Source: Escherichia phage vB_VIPECOMC06
Sequence record: PQ416618.1
Strand: one strand, 5' to 3'
DNA: 64,000 nucleotides
The notes beneath the pieces are model-generated. The model made no database searches. It was given only the letters and a program-made list of their open reading frames with translations, and was not told where the DNA came from. Made by a program: the position numbers and the translations under genes. Position 1 is the stretch's first letter, and each line of letters starts with the position of its first letter. Shown one piece after another: positions 14,905 to 43,318 of this stretch.

Positions 14905-14942
14905 AGACCTATCGAAACGAAATGAGTAAATTGGAGAATAAA

Positions 14943-15923: not shown

Positions 15924-15939
15924 GCTTATAGGAAGTTCT

Positions 15940-15985
15940 GAGGTAACAAAAGCCATAAAGATGAATAATCATATGGCTTACCTCA
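15940..15985 (+). other. long imperfect hairpin in intergenic region
   Basis: GAGGTAA..GCCATA / TATGGC..TTACCTC nested inverted repeats. Confidence 0.35.
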
Positions 15986-16061
15986 AAGAAGGACACCAGG
16001 AACCTACTGAGGGCATAGAAATATTTAAAAATAATGTTGTACAAATCAAAGAGGCTATGTT

Positions 16062-16349
16062 ATGGATTTTATGCAAAAAATTAAAGCCGCAGTAGAACTG
16101 TATGCTCATCGTATGGTTAGTTCTACAATGCAATATAGCGAGGAGGTTCGCCAGGACTCTTCCTTGAAAGGAAAAACTAAAGCCTTAATTACCTTAGATC
16201 GTTTGCAAAAGAATGCCCTAGAGTTGTTCCAGTACGACAAGGATGCATATAAGAAAGAACAGGAAGAGAAACTTAAATCTGAAAAATTACAGAAAATTCC
16301 GAAATCAGTTTGGTTCAGTGGAAAAAATACCGAAAAAAGTTTCTTTTAG
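16062..16349 (+). CDS. hypothetical protein (95 aa)
   Basis: ORF, Lys/Glu-rich. Confidence 0.4.
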   Translation: MDFMQKIKAAVELYAHRMVSSTMQYSEEVRQDSSLKGKTKALITLDRLQKNALELFQYDKDAYKKEQEEKLKSEKLQKIPKSVWFSGKNTEKSFF

Positions 16350-16351
16350 TT

Positions 16352-16386
16352 GTTTACAAGGTCTATGGTTATGTTATTATAGACCT
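16352..16386 (+). promoter_or_regulatory. early promoter with flanking inverted repeat (PeSL-like)
   Basis: GTTTAC, TGTTATTAT; AGGTCTAT / ATAGACCT arms. Confidence 0.55.
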
Positions 16387-16407
16387 ATCAACTACTGGAG
16401 GTAAAAC

Positions 16408-16935
16408 ATGAACGCTAAAGATATTTTCAACCTGGTAAATTATAACGACGGTAAATTTAAATCTGAAGCACAAAGCAAGTTCTTTAATGACGTTGCTTAT
16501 GGTAACGAGATTACCGTGGACGGAGGTCAGATTTTCAAATCTCGCTGGAATTGGATTGTTATCATCGATTCAGTTGGAATTGTGGAAGTCTACAAAAACA
16601 CTAACAAAAAACGTACATTATTCTGGTCTCGTGAAACTAACGAGCAGTACAAAAAGGATAAAGCATCTCGTTTATCTAAAGTAACCCAGGAAGATATCGA
16701 GTTTATCAAGAAAGATATCGAGATGTACGAAAATTTAATCGCTGAAGACCAGGCAGTACTCGATAAGTTTGATGAAATTAAAGCTTCTCGTGAAATCCCT
16801 GACTTCATGAAAGAAACAGTAAACGAACGATACGCTCTCACTTCAGAACGTATTGCAAACTATACAAAACAGAAAGCAGAACGTATTAGTACTCTTCGGA
16901 AATTTGAAGAACGTTTAAAGACGGTTCACGCATAA
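16408..16935 (+). CDS. hypothetical protein (175 aa)
   Basis: SD GGAGG; downstream of promoter cassette. Confidence 0.45.
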   Translation: MNAKDIFNLVNYNDGKFKSEAQSKFFNDVAYGNEITVDGGQIFKSRWNWIVIIDSVGIVEVYKNTNKKRTLFWSRETNEQYKKDKASRLSKVTQEDIEFIKKDIEMYENLIAEDQAVLDKFDEIKASREIPDFMKETVNERYALTSERIANYTKQKAERISTLRKFEERLKTVHA

Positions 16936-16997
16936 ACGCTTTACCCAAGGACGGGTTATAATGGTTCTGAGTTCCAATTAAATCTGAGGAAATAGTT

Positions 16998-17993
16998 ATG
17001 AGCATTACATCTGATGCGGTAAAACATGAAATTAACGGTTTATGTGCTTCACAGATTAAAGTGTGGTTTAAAGACCATAATGATCGCAGAGCACTTAATT
17101 ATGAGCAAATTGCTATCCAAGTTCATCAATTACTGACTAGTAAATTTGATTTTCATATGCCGTCTGAAATCTATACTAATCTACCGCGAGCGCTTATTAA
17201 AGCGTGTAAAGGTTATGGAAAATCAATGGCTGATGGAATCTTCAGCGCGCTGAATAAACTTAACGTTCTGTCGATGATTAACTCTAACAACATCCTGCGT
17301 AATCTAGGACGTACTGATTTGTTCGGTCGTGAACAGTGTAAAATGCCTTTGAAATGGATTGTTGCTCATCTTAACGAGAACCAAACACGTTTTATGGCTG
17401 TATCAGCACGCTTACAAATGGGCCTAGATCGTCAGATGAACTTTAAAACTCATCCACGTTATTCAGGTTCAACAGACTTTTATAAATGTGAGCTTCAAAA
17501 GGTTGCAGGTAAAACTGTCTTAGTAGTTCGTGTAACGTTTGAAGGACGACGTCAAGGATATTTTGACCTAATCGGCTCTGGTCTTAAACATTGTGGATTT
17601 ATTGACGAAGTTGATATCAAGCGAGACAGCATTGGATACCGTATTGGATATGTTTGTACTCTTAAAGAAGAGATTTCAGGACCAGTACCAGGACTAAAAG
17701 ACGTTAGATATAAAGACGAGCTCGTTGAAGAAATAAAAGAAGTTGAATATGATATCAACCAAGAAGATGCTCTTAAAGACCTTATTGATGAACTAAACCA
17801 AGACGTTATTCCGGTTCAGAAATTTGAATCAAAACATGCTGAGCAAATCAAATACTTTGAAGCTTTGATTAACGAACTTAATGTAACTATTCAACAGACT
17901 GACGATGAAATCTCGCGATTAGCAGGCTTAAACGGTAAAAATAAAACGGAACGAGCTAATCTTATTCAGGTAGTAAAACTTCTTAAGGAATGA
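16998..17993 (+). CDS. hypothetical protein with C-terminal coiled coil (331 aa)
   Basis: SD GAGGAAA; heptad-like C-terminus. Confidence 0.5.
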   Translation: MSITSDAVKHEINGLCASQIKVWFKDHNDRRALNYEQIAIQVHQLLTSKFDFHMPSEIYTNLPRALIKACKGYGKSMADGIFSALNKLNVLSMINSNNILRNLGRTDLFGREQCKMPLKWIVAHLNENQTRFMAVSARLQMGLDRQMNFKTHPRYSGSTDFYKCELQKVAGKTVLVVRVTFEGRRQGYFDLIGSGLKHCGFIDEVDIKRDSIGYRIGYVCTLKEEISGPVPGLKDVRYKDELVEEIKEVEYDINQEDALKDLIDELNQDVIPVQKFESKHAEQIKYFEALINELNVTIQQTDDEISRLAGLNGKNKTERANLIQVVKLLKE

Positions 17994-18022
17994 TGTACAA
18001 CCAAGGATGGTTGGAGTATAAT
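17994..18022 (+). promoter_or_regulatory. repeated promoter cassette CAACCAAGGATGGTTGGAGTATAAT (copy 1)
   Basis: TGTACA -35-like, palindrome CAACCA-AGGA-TGGTTG, -10 TATAAT. Confidence 0.55.
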
Positions 18023-18048
18023 AAATTTTTCAACATGAGGAATATAAA

Positions 18049-18981
18049 ATGGCTTTTATTACACGTAGAGAACTTATCAAAGAATTTACCTCGAACGCAT
18101 ATACTCCAGGACCTAATCCTATCCGTATGCCTGTAAAGACTCCTGAAGAGATTGAGGAAATCTGTTCATATTATGGGATTAATTCTCGTAAGTTTACTCA
18201 ATTTGAATGCGTTACTAACACACCCGTTAAAGAGTTCATTAAAAATGGTGAGTTCAGCCGTTTATTAGCCAAACAGAAACTTCGTAATTTTTGTATCGGC
18301 GGTGAAGGACAATATTTCGCTAAGCAGTTCAGGAATAACCTTAACAATCTGATGGCCATTGCTTCTCGTATTCGTCCTCAAGCAATTAACATGAAACATT
18401 TGAAATATACTTACGATAAGTTAGAAATCATGGTTATCAGTGAGAACGAGTTCACTCTTAAGTATAAACCTAAGAATGATAACGTTGCTCGTGTATTCCA
18501 CCAAGCGTTGGAAGTTTTAGGTGATAATATCCACCAGATTAAAGCAATTTATTCTCGTGAGCTTAATATTATCGACCCTATCAAGAATAAGGGCCATATC
18601 GCTATCCAGGCTCGTGTATCTATTGGTAAAAAGGTTCCTGCGCCATGGTGGCACAAAGACTCTGAATATTATAAAAATCTTAAAAAGGAAAATGCAACGT
18701 TTGAAGCGTCAATTATTGTCGCCCCGACTATCGGTAAGATTAACGCAGCTTCAGCACAACCTGTTATGTTTAACGGCACGTCTTCGACTAAACTGGAAAT
18801 CTCTAATGGTCTTCTTCCTGCCGAAGATTACTATTATAATCAAATCAAAGCCACTGTGGACCAACTGTCTGTTGAACTTGACAAAGCACAAGCTAAGCTT
18901 CGTGATGCTCAACAAGTAGTTACCAAGCTCCAGTTGCAGTACTCTAAACTTTTTAACGCAATGAATGCATTAAAATCATAA
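18049..18981 (+). CDS. hypothetical protein with C-terminal coiled coil (310 aa)
   Basis: Preceded by CAACCAAGGATGGTTGGAGTATAAT cassette; C-terminal LDKAQAKLRDAQQVVTKLQLQ. Confidence 0.5.
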   Translation: MAFITRRELIKEFTSNAYTPGPNPIRMPVKTPEEIEEICSYYGINSRKFTQFECVTNTPVKEFIKNGEFSRLLAKQKLRNFCIGGEGQYFAKQFRNNLNNLMAIASRIRPQAINMKHLKYTYDKLEIMVISENEFTLKYKPKNDNVARVFHQALEVLGDNIHQIKAIYSRELNIIDPIKNKGHIAIQARVSIGKKVPAPWWHKDSEYYKNLKKENATFEASIIVAPTIGKINAASAQPVMFNGTSSTKLEISNGLLPAEDYYYNQIKATVDQLSVELDKAQAKLRDAQQVVTKLQLQYSKLFNAMNALKS

Positions 18982-18985
18982 ATCA

Positions 18986-19015
18986 GTTTACAACCAAGGA
19001 TGGTTGGAGTATAAT
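18986..19015 (+). promoter_or_regulatory. repeated promoter cassette (copy 2)
   Basis: GTTTAC, CAACCAAGGATGGTTGG, TATAAT. Confidence 0.6.
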
Positions 19016-19043
19016 CTTTCTATCTTAACGAGAGGAAAATATT

Positions 19044-19994
19044 ATGACACGTTCACATTACATTGATTATTTTGCAGGTCTTATCGCTAACGTTCATGCC
19101 CAACGTGCTTCTGGTTCATTAGGATTTGATGTTCCACACCGAGTTGTAGTAAGTGGTATTCTTCGCGATTTTGGTACATACACAGGCCAAGAAAATCATA
19201 TCTGTAAAGATACTCAGAATGCGTATTCTCATTCATTAGGGACACTGCTTCAATGGTTCAAACGTTCTCGTTTATTATCTTCTACTGTAGCTCGCGATAA
19301 CATTAAAAACTTTATGAAGCCGAGCTTTATTAAATCTGTGACATCTAAAACCGATTTGGTTGAATTTACTATTATTAACGATGTTAAAAAGACTCATTTA
19401 GCTGATTGGTTATCTACCATTCCTGAAACTAAATTTGCTGATAAATTTGCTTGTGAATTCAATAACCAAGTGAATATGCTTTTTAAACATTCTCGTAAAT
19501 TATTCACAGGTGGCGATGATCGTACAAATAAAGTTCATGTTAAAGATTGGGTTACTGCAGTATTCAAACCGACCGGTAATGGTAACGCATCATTGTCAAT
19601 TGATATCCAGGTTCCGTATTACTACTCACGTAATCTCGGCACCATGAAAGCTGAAGAAATTAAGAAGCACAACAAAACCATTCGTTCGCTGTCTTATAAA
19701 CTTCGCATGATGTTAAGAATCATGGACGTGGTAGAAATGTATGATGAAACCGAAGATAACGGTTCAATGTTATTCAGTTCTCGTATTCAAATTAAGCTGA
19801 AGAACCCTAACGAGTATAAGCCTAAGCCTATTAAAGAGACTAAAGCAGAAAAAGCTGATAATTTAAGAGAAGAACGCGAATATCTCAAATCTCGTCTGAA
19901 AGAAGTCGAAGCCCAGATTGCAGAACAAACTAAATCATTAAAAGCTCTGAATGCAAAAGCTGATGGTTTACGAAATGCTATTGAGGTTTTATAA
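19044..19994 (+). CDS. hypothetical protein with C-terminal coiled coil (316 aa)
   Basis: Preceded by the same promoter cassette; C-terminal LKSRLKEVEAQIAEQTKSLKALNAKADGL. Confidence 0.5.
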   Translation: MTRSHYIDYFAGLIANVHAQRASGSLGFDVPHRVVVSGILRDFGTYTGQENHICKDTQNAYSHSLGTLLQWFKRSRLLSSTVARDNIKNFMKPSFIKSVTSKTDLVEFTIINDVKKTHLADWLSTIPETKFADKFACEFNNQVNMLFKHSRKLFTGGDDRTNKVHVKDWVTAVFKPTGNGNASLSIDIQVPYYYSRNLGTMKAEEIKKHNKTIRSLSYKLRMMLRIMDVVEMYDETEDNGSMLFSSRIQIKLKNPNEYKPKPIKETKAEKADNLREEREYLKSRLKEVEAQIAEQTKSLKALNAKADGLRNAIEVL

Positions 19995-24550: not shown

Positions 24551-25017
24551 ATTATGATAGATTTTATCCTTGCGATTTTGTGAATGGCCCTGGTTGCAGG
24601 GTCGTTCTTTTCGTTACAGGTTGTTTGCATAAATGCGAAGGGTGTTATAATAAATCAACATGGAACGCTAGAAATGGTATTCCATTCACGGGTGAAACAC
24701 TAGAGCAATTAATTGAATGTTTGAATAATGATTATATAGAAGGATTAACTATAACTGGAGGAGACCCTCTCTATCCTGATAACCGAGATGATGTTCATTG
24801 CATTGCTCAAACAGTAAAAAATCTTTATCCCAATAAAAGCATTTGGTTGTGGACAGGGTACAAGTTTGAAGATATTAAACAACTAGAAATGCTTAAATAT
24901 GTTGATGTTATTATTGATGGGAAGTATGAGAAAAATCTTCCGACTAAAAAGCTGTGGCGAGGATCAGATAATCAGCGACTTTGGTCAAATACCGATGGGG
25001 TGTGGAAACATGATTAA
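24547..25017 (+). CDS. nrdG: anaerobic RNR activating enzyme (radical SAM)
   Basis: N-terminal Cys-rich radical-SAM-type region (FVTGCLHKCEGCYNK); ATGA coupled to nrdD. Confidence 0.9.
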   Translation: MNYDRFYPCDFVNGPGCRVVLFVTGCLHKCEGCYNKSTWNARNGIPFTGETLEQLIECLNNDYIEGLTITGGDPLYPDNRDDVHCIAQTVKNLYPNKSIWLWTGYKFEDIKQLEMLKYVDVIIDGKYEKNLPTKKLWRGSDNQRLWSNTDGVWKHD

Positions 25018-25131
25018 ATTGAATTATATTATGGATACTATAAATGATATGATTTTTCATTTTGGTCCAGAATTTTATTCACAATATAGTTTAGTGTTTA
25101 TCAATGCTTGGTTAATTAATTAAGGGTAAAT

Positions 25132-25347
25132 ATGTATAAATTTCGTAAAGGTTTAGCTGATTTTCTTACAACTGTAACGTTCTTTTTGTTTATGGCAGTT
25201 GGAGCTATTTTTCTTATTCCTTTTACTGTTGTATTTTTCTTGATTAGTTTAATTTCTCCGGAAAAGGGTTTATCCTCCAGCGAATTCAATGAACGTTTGG
25301 ACAAAATTACTAATAAACTGAATTCTGTTCTTGATAAAAAGGCTTAA
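25132..25347 (+). CDS. small membrane protein (71 aa)
   Basis: Hydrophobic helix FFLFMAVGAIFLIPFTVVFFLISLI. Confidence 0.4.
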   Translation: MYKFRKGLADFLTTVTFFLFMAVGAIFLIPFTVVFFLISLISPEKGLSSSEFNERLDKITNKLNSVLDKKA

Positions 25348-25349
25348 TT

Positions 25350-25667
25350 ATGATTAGTTTTGAGCAGTATGTGGTAGAGAGTTGGAAAGGTTTTGATATG
25401 TTCGGTAATGACTATTATTTTTATGAATGTAGTCTAAATCCTAGTTTTTGGGCTGGACGTGAACGAGATCTCGAAGAAATTAATGCTCGTGTCGAATTGT
25501 TAGGTGAACTGCCTACAGTTTATTTTACCTTTGATGAATCTGGATTTGTTATCCAGGTTTATTTTCCTGAAGAAAACTCTGGCGAGGATTCTGTTAATCC
25601 TCCTTATTGGGCTTACCAAGGAATTATTTCTCGTGGAACAAAACTCGAACTTAAAGAACAAGATTGA
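25350..25667 (+). CDS. hypothetical protein (105 aa)
   Basis: ORF directly after upstream stop. Confidence 0.4.
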   Translation: MISFEQYVVESWKGFDMFGNDYYFYECSLNPSFWAGRERDLEEINARVELLGELPTVYFTFDESGFVIQVYFPEENSGEDSVNPPYWAYQGIISRGTKLELKEQD

Positions 25668-25956: not shown

Positions 25957-26064
25957 CCAGGTGCCGCCTGGTCTTCTTTATCTCATTTCTAATATAATCC
26001 ATTGGAATCTTCACTTCACTATCTCCTTGTGCCCCTCTCAAATCAAAAATATTTTCATAAAACA

Positions 26065-26093
26065 GTTTACATCCTCAATAGATGTGTTAAGAT
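26065..26093 (+). promoter_or_regulatory. early promoter
   Basis: GTTTAC, 17-bp spacer, TGTTAAGAT. Confidence 0.5.
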
Positions 26094-26121
26094 TAAACCA
26101 TCTACTATAGAGGAAAATAAA

Positions 26122-26370
26122 ATGATTAGTTTAGATTCAAAGAAAGTTGTTCTAACTCTTAATGTAAACAACGAACGTCTGATATTCATTACCATTTCCG
26201 ATTTGAACGTTGAAATTGCTAATGGCGTCCGTACTTATCAAACGTCTAAAACACAATGGGACTATATCCCAATGTTGACGCTTACTCAGCGTTTAGAATC
26301 AATCGGTCTTAAAGACCTTTCAGTAAGTGAAGTGAATTTTATCAAACGCATTGTATCAATCAACCTCTGA
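26122..26370 (+). CDS. hypothetical protein (~82 aa)
   Basis: ATG at 26122 after AGAGGAAA SD, downstream of promoter cassette. Confidence 0.4.
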   Translation: MISLDSKKVVLTLNVNNERLIFITISDLNVEIANGVRTYQTSKTQWDYIPMLTLTQRLESIGLKDLSVSEVNFIKRIVSINL

Positions 26371-26377
26371 GGTACTT

Positions 26378-26671
26378 ATGGGTAAAACGTATCGTCGTAA
26401 AGATTTGAAAGTTCGTGATTACGACTATTTTGGTAAACGTAAAGCTCCTGACGGTGTTAGCCACAAAGACATGGTTGAAAACATTTTCCGCTCAGATAAA
26501 TGGAAACGTATGAAAGGTGTTGATTCTGAAGTCAAGAACGAAATGAATCGACAACTTCGCAAAGAAGTTCGTAAGTTGAAAAAAGATGTTTACAGTAAAG
26601 AAGATTATGATTATAATACTTCTCATACTGAAGCCAAACGTAAAGCTAACGAATGTTATCGTTACAGTTGA
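26378..26671 (+). CDS. small basic protein (~97 aa)
   Basis: ATG at 26378 after GAGG SD; Lys/Arg-rich. Confidence 0.4.
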   Translation: MGKTYRRKDLKVRDYDYFGKRKAPDGVSHKDMVENIFRSDKWKRMKGVDSEVKNEMNRQLRKEVRKLKKDVYSKEDYDYNTSHTEAKRKANECYRYS

Positions 26672-26813: not shown

Positions 26814-27010
26814 ATCCTGAAAATATTGTGTCATGGCAACTTCGTGAAGAACGTGCCGAATTCTTTGCCAATATGAAACTCAACGGTGTTGAGGACGAAG
26901 ACTTTTTACGTTGGTTCTGGATTTACAAATACAAAGAATGCCAGCACGCTGTACTACTGACTTGTGCAGTTATGTATGAAGGCTGGAAAGGCGCTAAAAA
27001 GTTCGGTTAA
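26810..27010 (+). CDS. hypothetical protein (~66 aa)
   Basis: ATG at 26810 overlapping upstream stop (ATGA). Confidence 0.35.
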   Translation: MNPENIVSWQLREERAEFFANMKLNGVEDEDFLRWFWIYKYKECQHAVLLTCAVMYEGWKGAKKFG

Positions 27011-27023
27011 TAATATACAACGA

Positions 27024-27057
27024 TAGGAAGACATGTTATTATCTTCCTATCGTCTTA
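27024..27057 (+). other. perfect 12-bp inverted repeat (PeSL-like stem-loop)
   Basis: ACGATAGGAAGA-(10 nt)-TCTTCCTATCGT. Confidence 0.5.
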
Positions 27058-27073
27058 AAATGAGGAAAATATC

Positions 27074-27313
27074 ATGGAACAAGAATTAGACATTATTACA
27101 TCGAAAAAACGTCTTGAAGTCGTAGTGAATGGCTCAACTATTAAGTTTGTATACGACACTTTAACTGATGCTATTACTGTTAGTTGTGGTGGAAAGGCTT
27201 TTAGTCTAGATTCTACTGAAAACAAATACCCGTTCTATAAAGGTATCTTTGATATGGGTGTTGATATCAGTGTTCGTCAAGCAAACTATTTACATTATCT
27301 TATCACGGAATAA
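27074..27313 (+). CDS. hypothetical protein (79 aa)
   Basis: SD GAGGAAA; downstream of inverted-repeat cassette. Confidence 0.4.
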   Translation: MEQELDIITSKKRLEVVVNGSTIKFVYDTLTDAITVSCGGKAFSLDSTENKYPFYKGIFDMGVDISVRQANYLHYLITE

Positions 27314-27381
27314 TGCACAAACTCTTGAGAGCAGAGTATAATGCTCTCTCATTGGATAATAAAATAACCGAGGAAAATAAT

Positions 27382-27714
27382 ATGTCTACTAAAATCAAAA
27401 ACGTAGTTAATTCTTTCGCTTTCGATAAAGTTGTTGCTCTTCTGGAATCCGGCAATATTGTTACTCCTCAAGTCCTTGACGCGTGGGAATTCCGTCTTTA
27501 TGAAATCATGCAAAAACACGACCAGAAAATTGGACGTAATTCTATTCGCGAAATTCTAGTACAATATATTCTTTCTGAATTTGACGTTGCTGCATTTGGT
27601 GTTGAATCTAAAGCTTATCAGAAACATGAAATCTCTGAAAAAACTATCCGTCGTATGAAAAATCAACGTAAGAAAAAATTCGTTGACCTGAAAATTGTTA
27701 AGGCGGTAAAATGA
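27382..27714 (+). CDS. hypothetical protein (~110 aa)
   Basis: ATG at 27382 after GAGGAAA SD. Confidence 0.4.
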   Translation: MSTKIKNVVNSFAFDKVVALLESGNIVTPQVLDAWEFRLYEIMQKHDQKIGRNSIREILVQYILSEFDVAAFGVESKAYQKHEISEKTIRRMKNQRKKKFVDLKIVKAVK

Positions 27715-27938: not shown

Positions 27939-28204
27939 AATTAACTCGAATCAGTATAACTGAAGAAAAGCTGGGCGAATTTTATGTTGACGAATACATG
28001 AAAGTCACGTATTTTCCATTCGTTAAAGGTGTTGGTTTTTGGGAAACTCATGTATCTCAATTAAACGAAGGCGACTATAACGAAACTCATGAGAACTTTT
28101 TAGATTTTCTTTATAATGCCGGTCTTACTGAGCTTTATATCGATATCCATGAGTTCAAACGTTTAATGGAAAAAGTGTTTCAGGCTTATTGTTTGCTCCG
28201 ATAG
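27935..28204 (+). CDS. hypothetical protein (89 aa)
   Basis: ATGA coupling. Confidence 0.4.
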   Translation: MKLTRISITEEKLGEFYVDEYMKVTYFPFVKGVGFWETHVSQLNEGDYNETHENFLDFLYNAGLTELYIDIHEFKRLMEKVFQAYCLLR

Positions 28205-28211
28205 TATCTCG

Positions 28212-28250
28212 TGCTTTAAGATAGGTCTCTAAATATTATGATATAATAGA
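28212..28250 (+). promoter_or_regulatory. putative middle/early promoter with inverted repeat upstream of gene 55
   Basis: MotA-box-like TGCTTTA; ATAGGTCT / AGACCTAT arms flanking TATGATATAAT. Confidence 0.4.
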
Positions 28251-28276
28251 CCTATGAATTGAGCTAAGAGGTACTT

Positions 28277-28834
28277 ATGACTGAACAAAAACCTAAAAAT
28301 AACTATGTGAATAATAAAGAGCTTCTCGCCGCTATAATCGAGTGGAAAAAGGAGCTCTTAAATAATAAAGACCCAAACAAAATTATTCGTCAGAATGATA
28401 CCATCGGTTTAGCAATTATGCTTATCGCCGAAGGCCTGTCCAAACGTTTCAACTTTTCAGGATATACCCAGTCTTGGAAGCAGGAGATGATTGCAGATGG
28501 GATTGAAGCCTCTATTAAGGGACTTCATAATTTCGACGAAACTAAGTACAATAACCCACATGCATACATAACTCGAGCTTGTTTTAATGCTTTTGTCCAA
28601 CGTATCAAAAAAGAACGTAAGGAAGTTGCAAAGAAATATAGTTACTTCGTTCATAACGTCTACGACAGTCATGACGATGATATGGTAGCGTTGGTAGATG
28701 AAACGTTTATTCAAGACATCTACGATAAAATGACGCATTACGAAGAATCCGCTTATAAAGCTCCTGGGGCTGAAAAGAAGGAAGTTGTTAGCGATTCGCC
28801 TAGTTTGGATTTTTTATATGAGGATGACAATTGA
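28277..28834 (+). CDS. 55: late sigma factor gp55
   Basis: 185 aa as in T4 gp55; position between nrdD side and gene 47; sequence recalled as gp55-like. Confidence 0.8.
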
Positions 28835-29033
28835 CATCTCTAACTACTTAGAAGAACCTTTTGACGAAGCAATCCCTTATTTGGTAAAACTGTTGGGTCG
28901 TGAATTTAAAATTAATTTTGACATCGACCCTTTGAACCCACATGACGTGTCATTTTCGATAAATGGGACTCCGGTTGAGTATGAGTTCTGTATTGAAGAG
29001 GACGGACGTTTTTATTTTAATTTAATGAGATAA
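28824..29033 (+). CDS. hypothetical protein (~69 aa)
   Basis: ATG overlapping end of gene 55. Confidence 0.35.
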
Positions 29034-29034
29034 T

Positions 29035-29358
29035 ATGACTACCGAGATTATTGAAAATAAAGAAGCAGAAGATGCAGTAGCTAAAATGCTACAAGAAATC
29101 CAAAAGAAAAATGAAGCTGAAGCACGTAAAAAATCCGAAAAGATTCTTAAAAAGAATCGTTTTGAACTAAACCGTCTTTATGCTCATGCTCAAGAAGCAG
29201 CAATTCAAAACAACTTCGAAGCTTATGAATATGCTATTAAGAAATCTCGGGATATTCTACGACAACCATATAATGACAAGTTAATTAAAATCCAGTGGGT
29301 TACTACACGTCAGGCTATTGAGGACATCATTAATGGCGCTAGTTCAAACAAAGTTTAA
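29035..29358 (+). CDS. hypothetical protein (107 aa)
   Basis: Lys/Glu-rich helical ORF. Confidence 0.4.
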   Translation: MTTEIIENKEAEDAVAKMLQEIQKKNEAEARKKSEKILKKNRFELNRLYAHAQEAAIQNNFEAYEYAIKKSRDILRQPYNDKLIKIQWVTTRQAIEDIINGASSNKV

Positions 29359-29539
29359 ACGTCTGAAGTTGAACGCAGGGTTCACCCTTAAATTGGGAGG
29401 TCCTCTTTGTGTTAAAATCTCTGAAAAGGAATATCACGACGGTTCTATTACAGAAATTTGTCCGCCTATTGTAAAGGCAGACCCAAAACAACTCGTGTGG
29501 GTTGATTCATTTCAAGTTAAGAAATGGTGGAAACGATGA
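29333..29539 (+). CDS. hypothetical protein (~68 aa)
   Basis: ATG at 29333 overlapping upstream gene end. Confidence 0.35.
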   Translation: MALVQTKFKRLKLNAGFTLKLGGPLCVKISEKEYHDGSITEICPPIVKADPKQLVWVDSFQVKKWWKR

Positions 29540-29578
29540 GAGAAATCGATTTAGGTATTTTCTGAGAGGTGATTATGC

Positions 29579-29752
29579 ATGACGAACGACCTGACCTCTG
29601 AAAATTTCGATAAAATCCGTAAAGGCAAAGCAGAAAGAATGAGACGTTTTAAAGAGTCTTATGATAAAGCTAAAGCCGAAGGAACTATTACATACAAGCC
29701 CATTCGATTTAAAAGTTCAAATGAGCCTCTGTACGGTGTACTATGTGGATAG
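29579..29752 (+). CDS. hypothetical small protein (57 aa)
   Basis: Below track cutoff; followed directly by a strong terminator. Confidence 0.3.
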   Translation: MTNDLTSENFDKIRKGKAERMRRFKESYDKAKAEGTITYKPIRFKSSNEPLYGVLCG

Positions 29753-29775
29753 GAACTCTTCGGAGTTCCTTTTTT
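29752..29775 (+). terminator. rho-independent terminator
   Basis: GGAACTC-TTCG-GAGTTCC followed by TTTTTT. Confidence 0.8.
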
Positions 29776-29821
29776 GCTTTATAAACGGATGATAGAATGA
29801 ATTAACTAATGAGGAAATAAT

Positions 29822-30841
29822 ATGAAAATTTTAAATTTAGGTGATTGGCATTTAGGTGTTAAAGCTGATGATGAGTGGGTTCAATCCATTCAGTTGGATG
29901 GAATTAAGCAGGCGATAGAATATTCTAAGAAAAATGGAATTACTACATGGATTCAATACGGTGATATTTTTGATGTGCGAAAAGCAATCACGCATAAAAC
30001 TATGGAGTTCGCACGTGAAATAGTTCAAATGCTTGATGATGCTGGTATTACCCTACATACTGTTGTAGGAAACCATGATATGCACTTTAAAAATACTTTA
30101 ACTCCAAACGCTTCTACTGAGCTTTTAGCTAAATATCCTAATGTTAAAGTATATGATAAGCCTACTACAGTAGATTTTGACGGATGTTTGATTGATTTAA
30201 TTCCTTGGATGTGCGAAGAAAATACTGGTGAAATTCTTGAACATATCAAAACTTCATCTGCTTCTTTTTGTGTTGGGCACTGGGAACTGAATGGCTTTTA
30301 TTTCTATAAAGGAATGAAGTCTCATGGGCTTGAACCTGATTTCTTAAAGACCTATAAACAAGTCTGGTCCGGCCACTTCCACACAATCTCTGAAGCTGCT
30401 AACGTCAAATATATTGGGACACCATGGACACTTACTGCAGGTGATGAGAATGACCCGCGCGGATTCTGGGTATTTGACACTGATGTTGAACGTATGGAAT
30501 TTATTCCTAATGAAACAACATGGCATCGACGAATCACTTATCCGTTTAAAGGCAAAATCAATTATTCTGATTATACTAATCTAGCCGTACGTGTTATAGT
30601 ATCAGAAATTGATTCAGAGTTGACTAAGTTTGAATCTGAACTTGAAAAAGTAGTTCACTCTCTTCGTATGGTTTCTAAAGTTGATAACAGTGTTGAATCT
30701 GATGATGACCAGGAAATCGAGATTAAATCACTTCAAGATATCATTAAAGAATATATTGACGCGATTCCAGATATCTCAGACGAAGACAGAGAAGCGCTGG
30801 TCAAATATTCTAACGAACTTTATATTGAGGCAACACAATGA
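29822..30841 (+). CDS. 47: recombination endonuclease subunit gp47 (Mre11/SbcD-like)
   Basis: Phosphoesterase motifs GDWHLG, GDIFD, GNHD, GHWE; 339 aa. Confidence 0.9.
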   Translation: MKILNLGDWHLGVKADDEWVQSIQLDGIKQAIEYSKKNGITTWIQYGDIFDVRKAITHKTMEFAREIVQMLDDAGITLHTVVGNHDMHFKNTLTPNASTELLAKYPNVKVYDKPTTVDFDGCLIDLIPWMCEENTGEILEHIKTSSASFCVGHWELNGFYFYKGMKSHGLEPDFLKTYKQVWSGHFHTISEAANVKYIGTPWTLTAGDENDPRGFWVFDTDVERMEFIPNETTWHRRITYPFKGKINYSDYTNLAVRVIVSEIDSELTKFESELEKVVHSLRMVSKVDNSVESDDDQEIEIKSLQDIIKEYIDAIPDISDEDREALVKYSNELYIEATQ

Positions 30842-31095
30842 CTTTAGATGAATTTAACAATGCTGGGCTTGGGCTTGAAGTTGAAATGGACGTTAAAGAT
30901 GATGACGGATTCGAGAACACTATCAAGTATTGGATTGAGCCATTACGCGTTGAAGGCAATGAAGTTAAAGCAGTTCATGTCTGCACCGACTGGGCTATTG
31001 AATTTAGCTTTAATATAATGGACAACGATACTCCTGGCTCTATTCTTAAAATGGCTGAAGCATGTATTGAGGACGCGTATAATGACGAAGACTGA
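30838..31095 (+). CDS. hypothetical acidic protein (85 aa)
   Basis: ATGA coupling to gene 47. Confidence 0.4.
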   Translation: MTLDEFNNAGLGLEVEMDVKDDDGFENTIKYWIEPLRVEGNEVKAVHVCTDWAIEFSFNIMDNDTPGSILKMAEACIEDAYNDED

Positions 31096-31321: not shown

Positions 31322-33006
31322 AATCATTTAAATTAAATCGTGTTCGTTATCAAAACATCATGTCGGTAGGTGGGAATCCTATTGACATCCAATTAGATAA
31401 AGTCCAAAAGACATTAATCACTGGTAAAAATGGTGGTGGTAAATCTACGATGTTAGAAGCCATTACTTTCGGACTTTTCGGTAAACCATTTCGTGATGTT
31501 AAGAAAGGGCAAATCATTAATAGCACGAACAAGAAAGAGCTCTTAGTTGAGCTTTGGATGGAATTTGATGGTAAAAAATACTTCATTAAACGTGGCCAAA
31601 AGCCCAATATTTTCGAAATCTCCGTTGACGGTGTTCGTCTCGATGAATCTGCCAGCAGTCGTGACTTCCAAGAAGAATTTGAACGTAGCATCGGAATGTC
31701 ATACGCGTCTTTTAAACAAATCGTTGTGCTTGGGACGGCAGGGTATACCCCTTTCATGGCTCTTAGCACCCCTGCTCGCAGAAAACTTGTCGAAGACCTT
31801 TTAGAAGTCGGCACACTCGCTGAAATGGATAAAATCAATAAGTCTCAAGTTCGAGAACTTAATTCCCAAGGACAAGTTCTCGATGCCAAGAAAGATGGTA
31901 TTATCCAACAAATTAAGATTTATAACGAGAATATCGAACGTCAAAAGAAATTATCTGGTGATAATGTAGCGCGTCTACAGAATATGTATGACGACCTAGC
32001 CAAAGAAGCTCGTTCATTAAAAGCAGAAATCGAAGAAGCTAACGAGCGTCTACTTAATATCGTTCTTGACGAAGACCCTACTGAGGCATTCAACAAGATA
32101 GGACAAGAAGCATTCTTGATTAAATCTAAAATTGACTCATATAATAAAGTTATTAAGATGTATCATGATGGTGGTACATGTCCTACTTGTGCATCACAGT
32201 TGCACCAGGGTGATCCTATTGTCTCTAAGATTACCGATAAGCTTCATGAATGTAATCACTCATTCGAGCAACTTACCTGTCACAGAGATAATCTGAGTGT
32301 CCTAGTGGACGAATATAGAGCTAATGTTAAGACTAAACAGGACCTTGCATCTGATATTCGTACTAAGAAACAAGCAATGATTGCCACTATTGATAAAGCT
32401 AAGAAAGTTAAAGCTGCAATAGAACAAGCCTCAGCGGAATTTATCGACCATGCTGATGAGATAGCTTTGCTTCAAAAAGAACTTGATAAAATCATTAAAA
32501 CAAAATCGGATATCGTTCTTGAAAAATACCATCGTGGTATTATCACAGATATGTTAAAAGATTCCGGTATTAAAGGTGCTATCATTAAAAAATATGTGCC
32601 TCTGTTCAACAAGCAGATTAACTATTATCTTAAAATCATGGAAGCTGATTATGTGTTTTCTATTGACGAAGAATTCAATGAATCTATAAAATCACGTGGT
32701 CGTGAAGATTTTAGTTATGCTTCATTTAGTCAAGGTGAAAAGGCACGTATCGATATCGCATTGTTGTTTACATGGCGAGATATTGCTGAAAAGGTCTCTG
32801 GTGTTAAAATCAACACTCTGATTCTTGATGAGGTTTTTGATGGTGCTGTCGATTCTGAGGCTGTTAAGGCTATAGATACCATTCTTGGAAGTTTACAAAA
32901 TACTAATGTGTTCATTATCTCTCATCGAGACCATGACCCTCAACGTTATGGACAACATCTTCAAATGAGCAAAGTTGGACGATTTACGGTAATGACTGTT
33001 TCATAA
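31318..33006 (+). CDS. 46: recombination endonuclease subunit gp46 (Rad50/SbcC-like)
   Basis: Walker A GKNGGGKST, central coiled coil with Zn-hook-like CPTC, C-terminal signature/Walker B LILDEVFDG; 562 aa. Confidence 0.9.
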   Translation: MKSFKLNRVRYQNIMSVGGNPIDIQLDKVQKTLITGKNGGGKSTMLEAITFGLFGKPFRDVKKGQIINSTNKKELLVELWMEFDGKKYFIKRGQKPNIFEISVDGVRLDESASSRDFQEEFERSIGMSYASFKQIVVLGTAGYTPFMALSTPARRKLVEDLLEVGTLAEMDKINKSQVRELNSQGQVLDAKKDGIIQQIKIYNENIERQKKLSGDNVARLQNMYDDLAKEARSLKAEIEEANERLLNIVLDEDPTEAFNKIGQEAFLIKSKIDSYNKVIKMYHDGGTCPTCASQLHQGDPIVSKITDKLHECNHSFEQLTCHRDNLSVLVDEYRANVKTKQDLASDIRTKKQAMIATIDKAKKVKAAIEQASAEFIDHADEIALLQKELDKIIKTKSDIVLEKYHRGIITDMLKDSGIKGAIIKKYVPLFNKQINYYLKIMEADYVFSIDEEFNESIKSRGREDFSYASFSQGEKARIDIALLFTWRDIAEKVSGVKINTLILDEVFDGAVDSEAVKAIDTILGSLQNTNVFIISHRDHDPQRYGQHLQMSKVGRFTVMTVS

Positions 33007-33046
33007 ACGCTTTAACACGATGTGGTTATAATGACCACATCAAATT
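33007..33046 (+). promoter_or_regulatory. putative middle promoter with hairpin after gene 46
   Basis: CGCTTTA box, TATAAT 13 bp downstream, inside ATGTGGT-TATAATG-ACCACAT hairpin. Confidence 0.4.
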
Positions 33047-33060
33047 AAATGGAGAACAAC

Positions 33061-33249
33061 ATGGAGTATTCAACCGGACAACATCTTCTCGTTGTCCCTG
33101 AAATTAAAAAATATGTTTTGACCAATACGTTTTCAGGTGAAGAACATATTGTTACTGAACAAATGCTCAAATCTGCTTTTAAAGATGAGTATAATAAAAT
33201 AATGTCTAATCGCAATTCCGCATGGACAGTTACCGACTTCTACGAATAA
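33061..33249 (+). CDS. hypothetical protein (~62 aa)
   Basis: ATG at 33061 after GGAG; downstream of hairpin/promoter. Confidence 0.35.
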   Translation: MEYSTGQHLLVVPEIKKYVLTNTFSGEEHIVTEQMLKSAFKDEYNKIMSNRNSAWTVTDFYE

Positions 33250-39214: not shown

Positions 39215-39850
39215 ATGAAAACTACTCCTATTACTATCGCTATTGACGCAATCATAAAACAAGCTTCTTCTTTGGCCGCTATGGCCAAAGTAATTAGTCA
39301 AAACCCTGCTCGTTATAATGCTATTCTAGAAACTCTTCGACGCCCAGGACTTAGTAATTATGAAAGCCGAGTAATTATTACAGGTGTTGGTAAGAATGCT
39401 AATATTGCAACTAAAGCTTCTGAGACATTTGCTTCACTCGGTATCCCGAGTATGTACTTGAACACAGGGCATTATTCTCATGGTGATGCAGGATTCATTG
39501 CGCCTAATGATGTGTTGATTCATATTAGTCGTTCTGGTAAAACTGAAGAAATGATAGGTGTGGCTAAGCATCTTAAAATGATTCGTCCGAACGTCAAACA
39601 GATTCTGTTGCATTGTAACCCTGACATTCCACAAGAATACGAAGCTCTTTTTGATTATACGTTCTGTACAGGCATCGCAGTAGAGGTTGATGAGAATTCT
39701 CTGGCTCCGACCATGTCCACTACATTGTTGTTAGCGCTTATCGATACGTTTGCTATCAACCTTTCGTCTGAACGTGGATTTACCTCTAATGACTTCCTTA
39801 AGTTCCACCCTGGCGGTGCACTAGGTGCCATGTTACGAGGCGAACAATGA
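39215..39850 (+). CDS. SIS-domain sugar-phosphate isomerase (KdsD/GutQ-like arabinose-5-phosphate isomerase, no CBS domains)
   Basis: SIS core VIITGVGKNANIATKASETFASLGIPSMYLNTGHYSHGDAGFIAPNDVLIHISRSGKTEEM parallels the KdsD N-terminal domain. Confidence 0.7.
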   Translation: MKTTPITIAIDAIIKQASSLAAMAKVISQNPARYNAILETLRRPGLSNYESRVIITGVGKNANIATKASETFASLGIPSMYLNTGHYSHGDAGFIAPNDVLIHISRSGKTEEMIGVAKHLKMIRPNVKQILLHCNPDIPQEYEALFDYTFCTGIAVEVDENSLAPTMSTTLLLALIDTFAINLSSERGFTSNDFLKFHPGGALGAMLRGEQ

Positions 39851-39990
39851 AAGCAATAACAATAGGACTTTTACTATTGATGCTTGTCATGACTATCTAC
39901 TGGAGCTTAACGGCTCCAGTATTGATTCCAACACTTGTAATCGGATGGATTATGATTGGACTACAAGCAAAGTATGAATGCTTTAACTAG
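39847..39990 (+). CDS. small hydrophobic peptide (47 aa)
   Basis: ATGA-coupled to the SIS gene; two hydrophobic segments; not in ORF track (<60 aa). Confidence 0.35.
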   Translation: MKAITIGLLLLMLVMTIYWSLTAPVLIPTLVIGWIMIGLQAKYECFN

Positions 39991-40003
39991 AATAGTGTAC
40001 AAT
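39979..40003 (+). promoter_or_regulatory. putative MotA-dependent middle promoter for the nucleotidyltransferase/kinase gene
   Basis: MotA-box TGCTTTA (39979-39985) with TACAAT 12 bp downstream. Confidence 0.4.
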
Positions 40004-40031: not shown

Positions 40032-41717
40032 ATGAAAAAAGCTGTTATTCTTGGTGCTGGATTGGCAACTCGTTTGTATCCAATAACGCATCATATTCCT
40101 AAGGTGCTTGTTAACTATAAACAAGACACTATTCTGAGCAATTTGTATACAATTTATTCTGACCTTGGCGCAGATGAAATTATTGTAGTAGTTCATTCAA
40201 AATTTGCTGAAACTGTTCGAGCTTATTGTGAGCAAGAAGGGTTCAATGTGACTATTCGTACAGTTGATGAAGCGTATGGTTCTGCTTATGCTCTTGCTAA
40301 ATTACACAAAGATTTAGACGGCCATAATGTAATTGTTAACTGGTGTGATATTATTCCTGATTTCGGTTCATGGTCTTGGAATGTTAACGCAATCTATGTT
40401 AAGGGTGACGAATGTCGATATAATTTCGACGGTGAAAATATCACTAACGTAGGTTCAACAGGTGGTAATGTTGTAGGAATTTATCAGTTCAAAGACTGGG
40501 AATTCTATATGGGTTCTACTGATGAGGAAATTCATGAATACTGCAAAGGACGTGATTTCGTAGAATTCCTTTACGGCAGCGCATTCAATAAATCAGAGCT
40601 TATGAATCTAATTGATTTAGGTGATATGCCTAAACTTGAAAAAGCTCATGAAGTTCGTGAACTTAATCGTAGTTTTAATGCAGTTGAAATTGGTGAAGAA
40701 ACTGTAACTAAATTCGCATTAACCGAACAGGGCCGAGCTCTTCAGAAAGATGAGATTTCATGGTATCTTAAAGTGAAATCAGATTCAGTTCCTCAGTTAG
40801 TTTCTGTTAATGAAAATAACTTTGAAATGGAACGCATTAAAGGTAAGCCGGCATTTGAATATATTAAATCCAAATCAAGTCTTGCTCGTCCACAAATTGT
40901 TGATGCAATTTTAGACGCACTGAAATTCAGCACAGACACTTATTTTGTAAGTCCTGAAACTGTTCGTCGTGATTTCACTAAAGAATTCTATACGAAAGTT
41001 ATTGATCGTTGTGAAAGTATTCAACCATTGATTGATTCATTTGGTAAAATCACACATGTAAACTACACTAAGATTGGGCGTCTGAAGCCAATGTTGAAAC
41101 AAGCTTTAGAACACCTTATTCGTTATCATAACCGTTCTCAGGGACAGTACTCTGTTATTCATGGTGACCCGAACTTCAGTAATACTATGATTACTGATAA
41201 CGGTGAAGTCAAGTTTATCGACCCTCGTGGATATTTTGGCGAAACCAAGATTTACGGGCCAAAATTGTATGATGAAGCTAAAGTGCTTTATGCTGTTTCA
41301 GGTTATGATGAATTCAACGCTAATCCGACCTGGGGGCAGTTTACTATTGATGAAACAACTTGTAATGTGACTATTAACATCAATCCATTAGTTTACAAAT
41401 ATGGAAAGATGAGTTCGTTTAACGAGTATCATCATTTGGCAGTGGCAATTATCTGGATTGCATTAGGTGGTTATTTCAAGAATAATCCACTTAAAGCGGT
41501 AGCCGCATATTATAAAGGTATGGAACTTCTGACTAAGCAATTACGTAACATGGGCCGTGTACTTCAGGACGGCTCTATTAGTTATGACGTAGCAGAACCT
41601 GTAACGGCTACTCTGATTACAAAAAATCCTGGTAAATGGGTACTAACTGATAAAGAAACTGGTGTTTCCTATCGTCCAATCGGTGGCGATATCACTCATC
41701 AATGGGAACGAATCTAA
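40032..41717 (+). CDS. bifunctional sugar-1-phosphate nucleotidyltransferase / anomeric sugar kinase (561 aa)
   Basis: N-terminal RmlA/MurU-type motif AVILGAGLATRLYP; C-terminal APH/choline-kinase-type catalytic loop VIHGDPNFSN and FIDPRGYFG. Confidence 0.7.
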   Translation: MKKAVILGAGLATRLYPITHHIPKVLVNYKQDTILSNLYTIYSDLGADEIIVVVHSKFAETVRAYCEQEGFNVTIRTVDEAYGSAYALAKLHKDLDGHNVIVNWCDIIPDFGSWSWNVNAIYVKGDECRYNFDGENITNVGSTGGNVVGIYQFKDWEFYMGSTDEEIHEYCKGRDFVEFLYGSAFNKSELMNLIDLGDMPKLEKAHEVRELNRSFNAVEIGEETVTKFALTEQGRALQKDEISWYLKVKSDSVPQLVSVNENNFEMERIKGKPAFEYIKSKSSLARPQIVDAILDALKFSTDTYFVSPETVRRDFTKEFYTKVIDRCESIQPLIDSFGKITHVNYTKIGRLKPMLKQALEHLIRYHNRSQGQYSVIHGDPNFSNTMITDNGEVKFIDPRGYFGETKIYGPKLYDEAKVLYAVSGYDEFNANPTWGQFTIDETTCNVTININPLVYKYGKMSSFNEYHHLAVAIIWIALGGYFKNNPLKAVAAYYKGMELLTKQLRNMGRVLQDGSISYDVAEPVTATLITKNPGKWVLTDKETGVSYRPIGGDITHQWERI

Positions 41718-42103
41718 TGCACCGTGTAAAAAACATGCTTAATCTTTGTTTTGATGTCGATGATTGTATAACAGAGTGGAATAACAATCGTGATTACGTG
41801 AACTTCAAACCAGACGTCGAAATGGTATCTGCCATTAATGCTCTGTATGATGCAGGGCATACCATAACGCTTTACACTGCTCGCGGTATGAAGTCAGTCG
41901 GTCCTGGTCGTATAGCAATCGACATTCTCCCAAGTCTGATTCAGAACTTGGCAAACATTGGCTTGAAGTACCATAATTTGCTAACACATAAACCAGTATA
42001 TGATTGGATTATCGACGACAAAGCTATGCGTCCTGACGAATTCAAAGCTCTTATGAATAAAGGCGAATTCGAAACATTTAAATCATATAAACCGAATCTA
42101 TAA
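41717..42103 (+). CDS. HAD-superfamily phosphatase (KdsC-like)
   Basis: HAD motif I FDVDDCITE, motif II TLYTARG, motif III K (THKPVYD), motif IV IIDDKA; start uncertain (41717 or 41735). Confidence 0.65.
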   Translation: MHRVKNMLNLCFDVDDCITEWNNNRDYVNFKPDVEMVSAINALYDAGHTITLYTARGMKSVGPGRIAIDILPSLIQNLANIGLKYHNLLTHKPVYDWIIDDKAMRPDEFKALMNKGEFETFKSYKPNL

Positions 42104-42157: not shown

Positions 42158-43318
42158 ATGAATACCTTTAAAATCGGAACGAATTTTGATTTAGCTCTTC
42201 TTGATAAAATCGTAGAGCTCAATAAAACTTATCCTAATAGCTTGATAAACGAAGTATACGGCTCTACAAGAGAAATGGCTTTTGTAGCAGCCAGACCTGA
42301 TTTTAGGCTTCCTGACGTTGACAAAAAGATGTTAGAAGATTACGTTAAACGTTGTAACGAATTAGGTATTTGCTTTAACTATACACTCAACACGATAAAT
42401 CCTGGTTCAAAAAGAGAACTAGTTGAGTGGAAGAAGAAAGCTATTCAGGATTATGTTCAGTATCTTTGGTCAATAGGCGTATGGCGTATTACTATCGCTA
42501 ACCCTGTTGTTATGGAAATTGTTCGTGAAGTCAATAAAGACATTGAGATTGAAGTTTCAACAATTCTACATGTCGATGCTGTAACTCAAATCAAATACTT
42601 GCATGACCAGTATAATATCAAAAAGGTCTGCTGTGGAATTCATAAGAACCGTTCAGTTTCTTTCCTGAAGCGTGCAGCAGAGTTTTGCAATAAGAACAAT
42701 ATAATATTTGAAGTTCTTGTAAATGAGTTCTGTTCTAATGCTGGTAAAGGGTATACAACACATTGTAGTTATCGTGACTCTTGCTATATTTTCCATAGCA
42801 CCGATGTTACAGTAGATGATGCCAAATCCTTAAATGGATATCCAATGCAACACTGCATTAAAGCTCGTGATACAGACCCATTTAACTGGTTGAGAACTCG
42901 TTTTGTTCGTCCTCAAGATTTGAAACTTTATAATGATATTGGTATCACTCAATTTAAAGTTTCTGGACGTACAGGTAGCACCGACTACATTTTGAAAGTT
43001 CTTGAAGCTTATGCTTCTGAAAAGTTTGAAGGTAATTTGTTAGAACTGTGGAAGCCTTTAGAGACTATTTTCACTCTTGAAAACGAAACTGAGTTTTCAC
43101 ATACGGTAAATATTGAAACCTCTTTGTTAGATGGCTTTTTAGAAAAAAGGTGGTTCAAACATCCAGATTTCGATTGTGCTAATGAAATCTGTGGGACGAC
43201 GTGTACATATTGTGAAAGATATTATAAACGTCAGTTATCTAAAAACGGGTTATCAGAAAATTCTATATCTATTATTGATATAACTAACTCTGATGACGCT
43301 TTGAGGTACCCAGAATGA
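42158..43318 (+). CDS. Cys-rich enzyme of unknown function (386 aa)
   Basis: Cys cluster EFCSNAGKGYTTHCSYRDSC and C-terminal CANEICGTTCTYC; weak resemblance to the TIM-barrel peptidase-U32 (RlhA/UbiU) pattern; part of the sugar-nucleotide cassette. Confidence 0.55.
   Translation: MNTFKIGTNFDLALLDKIVELNKTYPNSLINEVYGSTREMAFVAARPDFRLPDVDKKMLEDYVKRCNELGICFNYTLNTINPGSKRELVEWKKKAIQDYVQYLWSIGVWRITIANPVVMEIVREVNKDIEIEVSTILHVDAVTQIKYLHDQYNIKKVCCGIHKNRSVSFLKRAAEFCNKNNIIFEVLVNEFCSNAGKGYTTHCSYRDSCYIFHSTDVTVDDAKSLNGYPMQHCIKARDTDPFNWLRTRFVRPQDLKLYNDIGITQFKVSGRTGSTDYILKVLEAYASEKFEGNLLELWKPLETIFTLENETEFSHTVNIETSLLDGFLEKRWFKHPDFDCANEICGTTCTYCERYYKRQLSKNGLSENSISIIDITNSDDALRYPE

Follow-up and report, generated by a model that had tools for sequence, protein, structure and literature searches.

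Phage T4 makes 5-hydroxymethylcytosine (hmC) through gp42 and glucosylates it with the products of two genes, a-gt (alpha-glucosyltransferase) and b-gt (beta-glucosyltransferase). Escherichia phage vB_VIPECOMC06 (sequence record PQ416618.1), of which a stretch of 64,000 nucleotides (the window) was analysed, differs in having no sequence homologue of either gene, and the slot that a-gt occupies in T4, between genes 55 and 47, is empty. What does this empty slot say about the DNA modification of the phage? A reading made from the sequence alone (hereafter the sequence-only reading) had taken it, together with a missing beta-gt and a sugar cassette, as support for a modification system in which hmC carries a sugar other than glucose. 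The present analysis indicates that the empty slot is very probably a known trait of the genus Mosigvirus and accompanies arabinosyl-5-hydroxycytosine instead of glucosyl-hmC. Arabinose on 5-hydroxycytosine, made by other enzymes, is a known trait of the Mosigvirus group, and because hmC would not be made the phage would have no use for a-gt or b-gt.

Nucleotide identity across positions 28000-31000 of the window was 98.9% with pEK20, PNJ-6 and JQD51, 98.8% with ST0 and 98.3% with JS09. Gene order in the window was the same as in Mosigvirus genomes, and ST0 and JS09 are classified in the RefSeq taxonomy as Straboviridae, Tevenvirinae, Mosigvirus, species Mosigvirus JS09. By these matches the phage is placed in Mosigvirus, within the JS09 species (RB69/JS09 group). 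The window begins upstream of tk and stops midway through gene 39; its major genes all lie on the + strand.

The interval between genes 55 and 47

The interval and its flanking landmarks contain the following features (aa, amino acids; nt, nucleotides; E, E-value).

28277-28834, + strand: gene 55, late sigma factor gp55, 185 aa; 99.5% identical to RB69 gp55 and 90.7% to T4 gp55; left landmark
28818-29033, + strand: a-gt.5 orthologue, 71 aa (69 aa from the second ATG), overlapping the end of gene 55
29035-29358, + strand: a-gt.4 orthologue, 107 aa; 58% to T4 a-gt.4, E 3e-38
29333-29539, + strand: a-gt.3 orthologue, 68 aa; 71% to T4 a-gt.3, E 4e-35
29579-29752, + strand: a-gt.2 orthologue, 57 aa; 75% to T4 a-gt.2, E 2e-28; Pfam DUF5486, E 4.5e-28
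29751-29776 (hairpin 29751-29770), + strand: intrinsic-terminator-like hairpin AGGAACTC-TTCG-GAGTTCCT followed by T6, from a terminator scan
29775-29798, + strand: site resembling a MotA-dependent middle promoter (TGCTTTA, 11 nt, TAGAAT), 24 nt upstream of the gene 47 ATG
29753-29821, + strand: empty a-gt slot, 69 bp non-coding, with the terminator-like hairpin, the promoter-like site and a ribosome-binding site, GAGGA, at 29811-29815
29822-30841, + strand: gene 47, Mre11/SbcD-like nuclease subunit; product 86% identical to T4 gp47; right landmark

The absence of a-gt from this interval, which had been described as holding four small open reading frames (ORFs) of 57-107 aa and a terminator, was confirmed by the ORFs themselves, by tblastn and by a hidden Markov model (HMM). 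The four products are homologous to T4 a-gt.2 to a-gt.5, and their order downstream of gene 55 is conserved as well. In addition to the matches listed, the a-gt.5 orthologue was 47% to T4 a-gt.5 (E 9e-19) and matched Pfam DUF5491 (E 5.8e-13) and PHROG 1169, the a-gt.4 orthologue matched Pfam DUF2654 (E 1e-27) and the a-gt.3 orthologue matched PHROG 1648 and no Pfam family, so that three of the four proteins exceeded Pfam gathering scores. All four were 98-100% identical to their RB69 and HY126 counterparts (100% for a-gt.5, a-gt.4 and a-gt.3). Their PHROG families are all of unknown function, and the names a-gt.2 to a-gt.5 reflect position only, not function. The remaining ORF in the interval was a single 50-aa ORF with a TTG start on the minus strand, and Rfam and repeat scans of the interval gave no Rfam match and no notable repeat. 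The RB69 record (NC_004928) already names a-gt.2 to a-gt.5 without a-gt, and the JS09 annotation does likewise. Within an explanation that, taken as a whole, we hold with high confidence, the interval is the normal, previously annotated 55-47 region of a JS09-species Mosigvirus.

The search for a-gt and b-gt covered the window and, in full, the genome of ST0, which is 98.8% identical to the window across the region. No homologue was returned by tblastn, the check that the sequence-only reading had proposed, with best E-values of 2 for the T4 a-gt query and 5.1 for the T4 b-gt query; T4 itself, as a control, gave 838 bits (a-gt) and 717 bits (b-gt). An a-gt HMM built from four genera (T4, EcNP1, Klebsiella phage Roth79 and Erwinia phage Cronus) gave a best E of 0.18, at the level of noise, against 988 six-frame ORF segments, and phmmer with b-gt gave a best E of 2.3 against the same segments. 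No glycosyltransferase family was found by Pfam in the 299-aa protein described below or in ten other large window ORFs of unknown function. Genes for proteins of 310-333 aa at 13539-19994 were considered as hidden glycosyltransferases and rejected, their Pfam matches being to RlaP, AAA-like or DUF families. The five genes of this nrdC.x region (13539-19994) encode an RlaP-like nucleotidyltransferase, a weak AAA/helix-turn-helix protein, a DUF7235 protein and two proteins without a family.

The 5' arm of the hairpin behind a-gt.2 overlaps the stop codon of that gene. Its predicted RNA fold had an energy of -13.9 kcal/mol (z = -3.86), with equally stable folds in 0 of 200 shuffled sequences, and it is a good candidate for an intrinsic terminator. 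The promoter-like site fits the MotA-box and -10 consensus of T4 middle promoters; the pattern TGCTTYA-N11-13-TANNNT occurred 14 times in the window, with 1.6 expected. In RB69, JS09, ST0 and HY126 the terminator/promoter region differed from that of the window by 1-2 bases only.

Genes 55, a-gt.5 to a-gt.2 and 47 follow one another in the same order in T4 and other Tequatrovirus phages, where the small proteins are 47-75% to those of the window and a hairpin and TGCTTTA likewise follow a-gt.2. T4 differs in carrying mobB (an HNH homing endonuclease gene), a-gt and 47.1 before gene 47. The T4 arrangement assumed at the outset, with a-gt between 55 and 47, was therefore correct and at the same time incomplete, since T4 has the same four ORFs plus mobB and 47.1. 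The distance from a-gt.2 to gene 47 is 69 bp in the window, 2283 bp in T4 (mobB, a-gt, 47.1) and 1445 bp in EcNP1 (a-gt, 47.1). Between the a-gt.2 stop and the a-gt ATG, a part that takes in the stop codon, the hairpin, TTGCTTTATAAA, a -10-like box and the ribosome-binding site AATGAGGA, the window and the Tequatrovirus EcNP1 are colinear, and colinearity resumes at the gene 47 ATG. Missing from the window are exactly the 1379 bp that separate the a-gt and gene 47 start codons of EcNP1, and both junctions read ATGAAA.

Among the other phages compared, the slot was filled with a-gt in Tequatrovirus, in Klebsiella phage Roth79 and in Erwinia phage Cronus (Roskildevirus), and empty in RB69, HY126, JS09, mar005P1, Gaprivervirus VR7 and Serratia phage 92A1. 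The type of modification cannot be told from an empty a-gt slot alone, which is weak evidence by itself; the slot is also empty in VR7.

Loss of a-gt in Mosigvirus and its ancestral absence were rated about equal. On one reconstruction, which we hold tentatively, the Mosigvirus ancestor lost a-gt when it switched from hmC to 5-hydroxycytosine, by a precise deletion between ATGAAA start codons. The identical position of a-gt in Tequatrovirus, Roth79 and Cronus, with proteins 56-66% to T4 a-gt, indicates an old and stable location, and the intergenic region of the window, colinear with EcNP1 upstream of a-gt, joins gene 47 exactly at ATGAAA. However, no remnant of a-gt or 47.1 was found in the 69-bp spacer, which shares the regulatory module alone with T4, and the empty slots of VR7 and 92A1 mean that absence may equally be ancestral. 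The second reconstruction, advanced with the same reserve, has the empty slot as the ancestral state and a-gt, sometimes with mobB and 47.1, as a self-contained cassette that includes both a terminator and a middle promoter. This cassette would have been inserted, possibly more than once, into lineages that make hmC. Two modules of a hairpin and TGCT(T/A)TA bracket a-gt in T4, EcNP1, Roth79 and Cronus, as would be expected of an inserted transcription unit, while the window has one; several genera have empty slots, and the mobB homing-endonuclease gene adjoins a-gt in T4. Against insertion stands the use of the same slot in three divergent genera, with a divergence of a-gt that roughly tracks genome divergence, a pattern more in keeping with vertical inheritance than with insertion on several occasions.

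The modification cassette and the modified base

The sugar cassette of the sequence-only reading is present, as a set of sugar-nucleotide genes between gene 43 and uvsX. The seven products of the cassette were 97-100% identical to RB69 and HY126 proteins. They are listed here in map order (dCMP, deoxycytidine monophosphate; HAD, haloacid dehalogenase).

39215-39850, + strand: arabinose-5-phosphate isomerase, first gene of the cassette; Pfam SIS; 99% to RB69 gp55, 100% to the HY126 protein
40032-41717, + strand: bifunctional sugar kinase/nucleotidyltransferase, 561 aa (AfhE-like; RB69 gp52:53); Pfam NTP_transferase at the N-terminal end
41717-42103, + strand: HAD-like sugar phosphatase (AfhF-like; RB69 gp51); 99% to the HY126 protein, 98% to RB69 gp51; PHROG 1238
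42158-43318: U32-peptidase-like protein, 386 aa, mid-cassette; Pfam E 6e-11; 99% to RB69 gp50
43592-44308, + strand: thymidylate-synthase homologue, predicted 5-hydroxy-dCMP synthase, at the T4 gene 42 position
44308-45207, + strand: GT-B glycosyltransferase, 299 aa, proposed first arabinosyltransferase (RB69 gp46:47), in the T4 beta-gt slot
45209-45757, + strand: thymidylate-kinase-like nucleotide kinase (RB69 gp45); 98-99% to RB69/HY126 proteins; PHROG 761 thymidylate kinase

The enzyme at the gene 42 position bears most directly on the identity of the modified base. The thymidylate-synthase homologue was 99.2% to RB69 gp48 and 24.8% to T4 gp42, and it matched PDB entry 9IQC with an E of 1e-161, that is, a near-identical solved structure. 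Its Asn186 aligned with Asp169 of ThyA, a signature of the D169N type, the segment around it reading RSQN in the window, QRSCD in ThyA, RSVD in the td protein of phage and RSND in T4 gp42. The rows of td and gp42 establish the position of the column independently of ThyA. RB69 gp48 has been shown by Lee et al. (2026) to make 5-hydroxy-dCMP from dCMP, and Asn at the position of ThyA Asp169 was proposed in the same study as a diagnostic signature (PMC13326640). The sequence-only reading had named hmC as the modified base, and this is contradicted by the identity of the synthase and by the Asn signature. Because an enzyme of the 5-hydroxy-dCMP synthase type is present instead of gp42, the sugar is predicted to be ether-linked to 5-hydroxycytosine.

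Work on close relatives is consistent with this prediction. RB69 DNA was reported to contain arabinose instead of glucose, without a homologue of a-gt, b-gt or ba-gt (Thomas et al. 2018, PMC6024577), and mass spectrometry and nuclear magnetic resonance (NMR) placed the RB69 sugar in ether linkage on 5-hydroxycytosine, not hmC (Lee et al. 2026, PMC13326640). Both 5-ara-dC and 5-ara-ara-dC were found in the Mosigvirus NP, in a study that called the hmC assignment for RB69 an error (PMC13390438), and in the DNA of RB69, NP and HY126 both are built on 5-hydroxycytosine (PMC13326640, PMC13390438). As cited in PMC13326640, He et al. (2026, Nat Chem Biol) described the Afh enzymes of HY126 with crystal structures, and Mahler et al. 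(2025) treated related phages. The biology of the pathway is thus already published (RB69 annotation, Thomas 2018, Mahler 2025, He 2026, Lee 2026). Of the non-glucose hmC system that had been postulated, the non-glucose part stands, the closest studied relatives carrying arabinose (PMC6024577, PMC13326640, PMC13390438), and the hmC part does not.

The genes for supply of uridine diphosphate (UDP)-arabinose, namely isomerase, kinase/nucleotidyltransferase and HAD phosphatase, were all present. The product of 40032-41717 was 97% identical to its HY126 counterpart and 99.5-99.7% to the two halves in RB69. Its matches to a C-terminal kinase were weak; its function, like that of the 41717-42103 product, is taken from the literature (PMC13326640). 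The dCTPase gp56 is also encoded, 97% identical to the RB69 protein. Two cassette genes are split in the RB69 record NC_004928, ORF046/047 (24597-25497) and ORF052/053 (28094-29780), and both are intact single ORFs in the window (44308-45207 and 40032-41717), which agrees with the published view that sequencing errors account for the splits in RB69. The promoter-like pattern recurred at 39979-40003, just upstream of the cassette kinase/nucleotidyltransferase gene, and at 45147-45171, just upstream of the kinase gene. Since MotA-box-like sites precede cassette genes, middle-mode transcription of the modification genes is suggested.

The missing beta-gt of the sequence-only reading holds in so far as no sequence homologue was found; its place is taken by another glycosyltransferase of the GT-B type. 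The gene for this 299-aa protein lies directly after the gene 42 homologue and before the kinase gene and uvsX, which is the b-gt position of T4. The T4 slot (gene 42/b-gt/uvsX) and the window thus both have a glycosyltransferase gene between the synthase or its homologue and uvsX; the window differs in that its GT-B enzyme has no detectable similarity to b-gt and a nucleotide kinase gene comes next. The protein was 98.7% identical to that of HY126, and a PDB sequence search with it gave no match. AlphaFold2, run with a 76-sequence alignment, predicted a GT-B fold with a predicted local distance difference test (pLDDT) score of 95.5 (a single-sequence run, at pLDDT 38, was unusable). A GT-B fold enzyme is therefore encoded in the genome, and fold-level relatives of a-gt exist in the phage. 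The enzyme has been proposed as an arabinosyltransferase (PMC13326640), and its assignment here as the first transferase is offered as a hypothesis. A second transferase of 366 aa is encoded in ST0 between gene 39 and rIIA and matched PDB entry 9IQZ, the HY126 glycosyltransferase (E 1e-250); the window breaks off within gene 39, and in relatives this gene starts about 300 bp past that point.

Together these genes suggest a pathway in which the chemistry and enzyme activities are those described for RB69, HY126 and NP, while gene content, orthology, the lack of both glucosyltransferase genes, the GT-B fold and the Asn signature come from the present analysis. The dCTPase gp56 would supply dCMP, which the flavin-dependent thymidylate-synthase homologue (43592-44308) would hydroxylate to 5-hydroxy-dCMP, and the modified base would enter DNA by way of kinases and the polymerase. 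The cassette between gene 43 and uvsX would convert ribulose-5-phosphate to UDP-arabinofuranose. A first arabinose would then be added by the GT-B transferase in the beta-gt slot (44308-45207) and a second by the GT4-like transferase encoded, in relatives, just past the window end.

Some points weigh against this account. The DNA chemistry of the phage is assumed to equal that of RB69, HY126 and NP on the strength of near-identical enzymes. Single purified transferases were inactive in vitro on 5hoC DNA in the hands of Lee et al. (PMC13326640), and the U32-peptidase-like protein is given no more than a tentative role there, as a "sugar or heterocycle reductase" (PMC13326640). The second, GT4-like transferase lies outside the window, and its presence in this phage is presumed from relatives. 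The terminator and promoter next to the slot are putative, being consensus matches.

That the phage still makes glucosyl-hmC, with a diverged glucosyltransferase encoded elsewhere, appears very improbable. The gene 42 position holds an enzyme of the 5-hydroxy-dCMP synthase type with the Asn signature, an arabinose-5-phosphate isomerase and a UDP-arabinose cassette are present, and liquid chromatography-mass spectrometry and NMR of RB69 and NP found arabinose on 5-hydroxycytosine and no glucose (PMC13326640, PMC13390438). An assembly or sequencing artefact as the source of the missing a-gt has a negligible probability, and misassembly of the window was rejected, because each of the best 30 matching independent genomes aligned to 28000-31000 in one unbroken piece of 3001-3006 bp and RB69, HY126, JS09, ST0 and mar005P1 have the same four ORFs directly before gene 47.

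Gene order of the 55-47 region and of the cassette was identical to the window in the Mosigvirus genomes RB69, JS09, ST0 and HY126. Clusters in Acinetobacter phage DLP3, Serratia phage 92A1 and Shewanella phage Thanatos have the same parts (5-hydroxy-dCMP synthase, isomerase, kinase/nucleotidyltransferase, phosphatase and GT-B transferases; PMC13326640). The 299-aa transferase has homologues in these groups of phages, and the a-gt slot of 92A1 is empty too. DLP3 has three transferases and tri-arabinosyl DNA, whereas Mosigviruses have two and mono- and di-arabinosyl DNA (PMC13326640).

The distinction between glucosyl-hmC and arabinosyl-5-hydroxycytosine decides which host defences are escaped or triggered, among them restriction enzymes, CRISPR-Cas, type IV enzymes (GmrSD, BrxU) and defence glycosylases, and it is relevant to the choice of therapeutic phages. 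In this phage known markers suffice to tell the modification type, and 5-hydroxycytosine, not hmC, is the name to use for the base.

The start of gene 47

The beginning of gene 47 had a different affinity from its surroundings. Bases 1-450 of the gene (29822 to about 30270) were 98.4% identical to EcNP1, 91.1% to T4 and 71% to RB69, HY126 and mar005P1, whereas bases 480-1020 were 98.7% identical to RB69 and 75.7% to EcNP1. Sliding identity to RB69 was 98-100% from a-gt.5 to the ribosome-binding site, about 70% in the patch and about 99% after it. At sites in the patch where RB69 and EcNP1 differ, the window had the EcNP1 base in nearly all cases, and downstream it had the RB69 base. Matches to Tequatrovirus began at 29820, two bases before the gene 47 ATG, so that the edge of the patch adjoins the empty slot. 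Across the compared part of the window, 23118-52848 (30 kb comparable with T4), this was the only T4-like segment.

The gene 47 start is of the Tequatrovirus type in the window, ST0 and JS09, while RB69, HY126 and mar005P1 carry the 71%-identical Mosigvirus allele. The patch is common to ST0, and the JS09 version is slightly shorter and more diverged (94.7% to EcNP1). It has the appearance of a recent gene conversion in which an arabinosyl-5-hydroxycytosine phage received DNA from a glucosyl-hmC phage and which ended at the border of homology. We lean, by a small margin of belief, towards reading the right edge of the slot as the breakpoint of a recent intergeneric transfer from Tequatrovirus to a JS09-clade Mosigvirus in which a-gt and 47.1, the genes immediately upstream in the donor, were not transferred. 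A limited check of the literature found no published report of the patch, and it appears to be new.

The mosaic patch offers a small, concrete case of DNA exchange across different DNA chemistries. It has been suggested before that differences in DNA modification restrict exchange within Tevenvirinae (PMC6024577; PMC8056088). If the exchange is real and recurrent, differing DNA hypermodifications would not fully isolate phage groups, contrary to the suggestion made for RB69. If true, the border of the slot, which is the site of mobB in T4, may also be a preferred site of breakage and repair.

Further short segments with 76-88% identity to RB69, against a background of 98-100%, were found at 26000-26400, 27000-27400, 32800-33000, 53600-54000, 59600-59800 and 62000-62200. 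The dip at 32800-33000 corresponds to the 3' end of gene 46, where ST0 also differs, with a gap in its alignment near 32995-33063. Unrelated to the slot, a counter-defence gene at 50506-51165 encodes a 219-aa protein with a full-length match to Pfam AdfA (anti-DarT factor A; E 5e-121).

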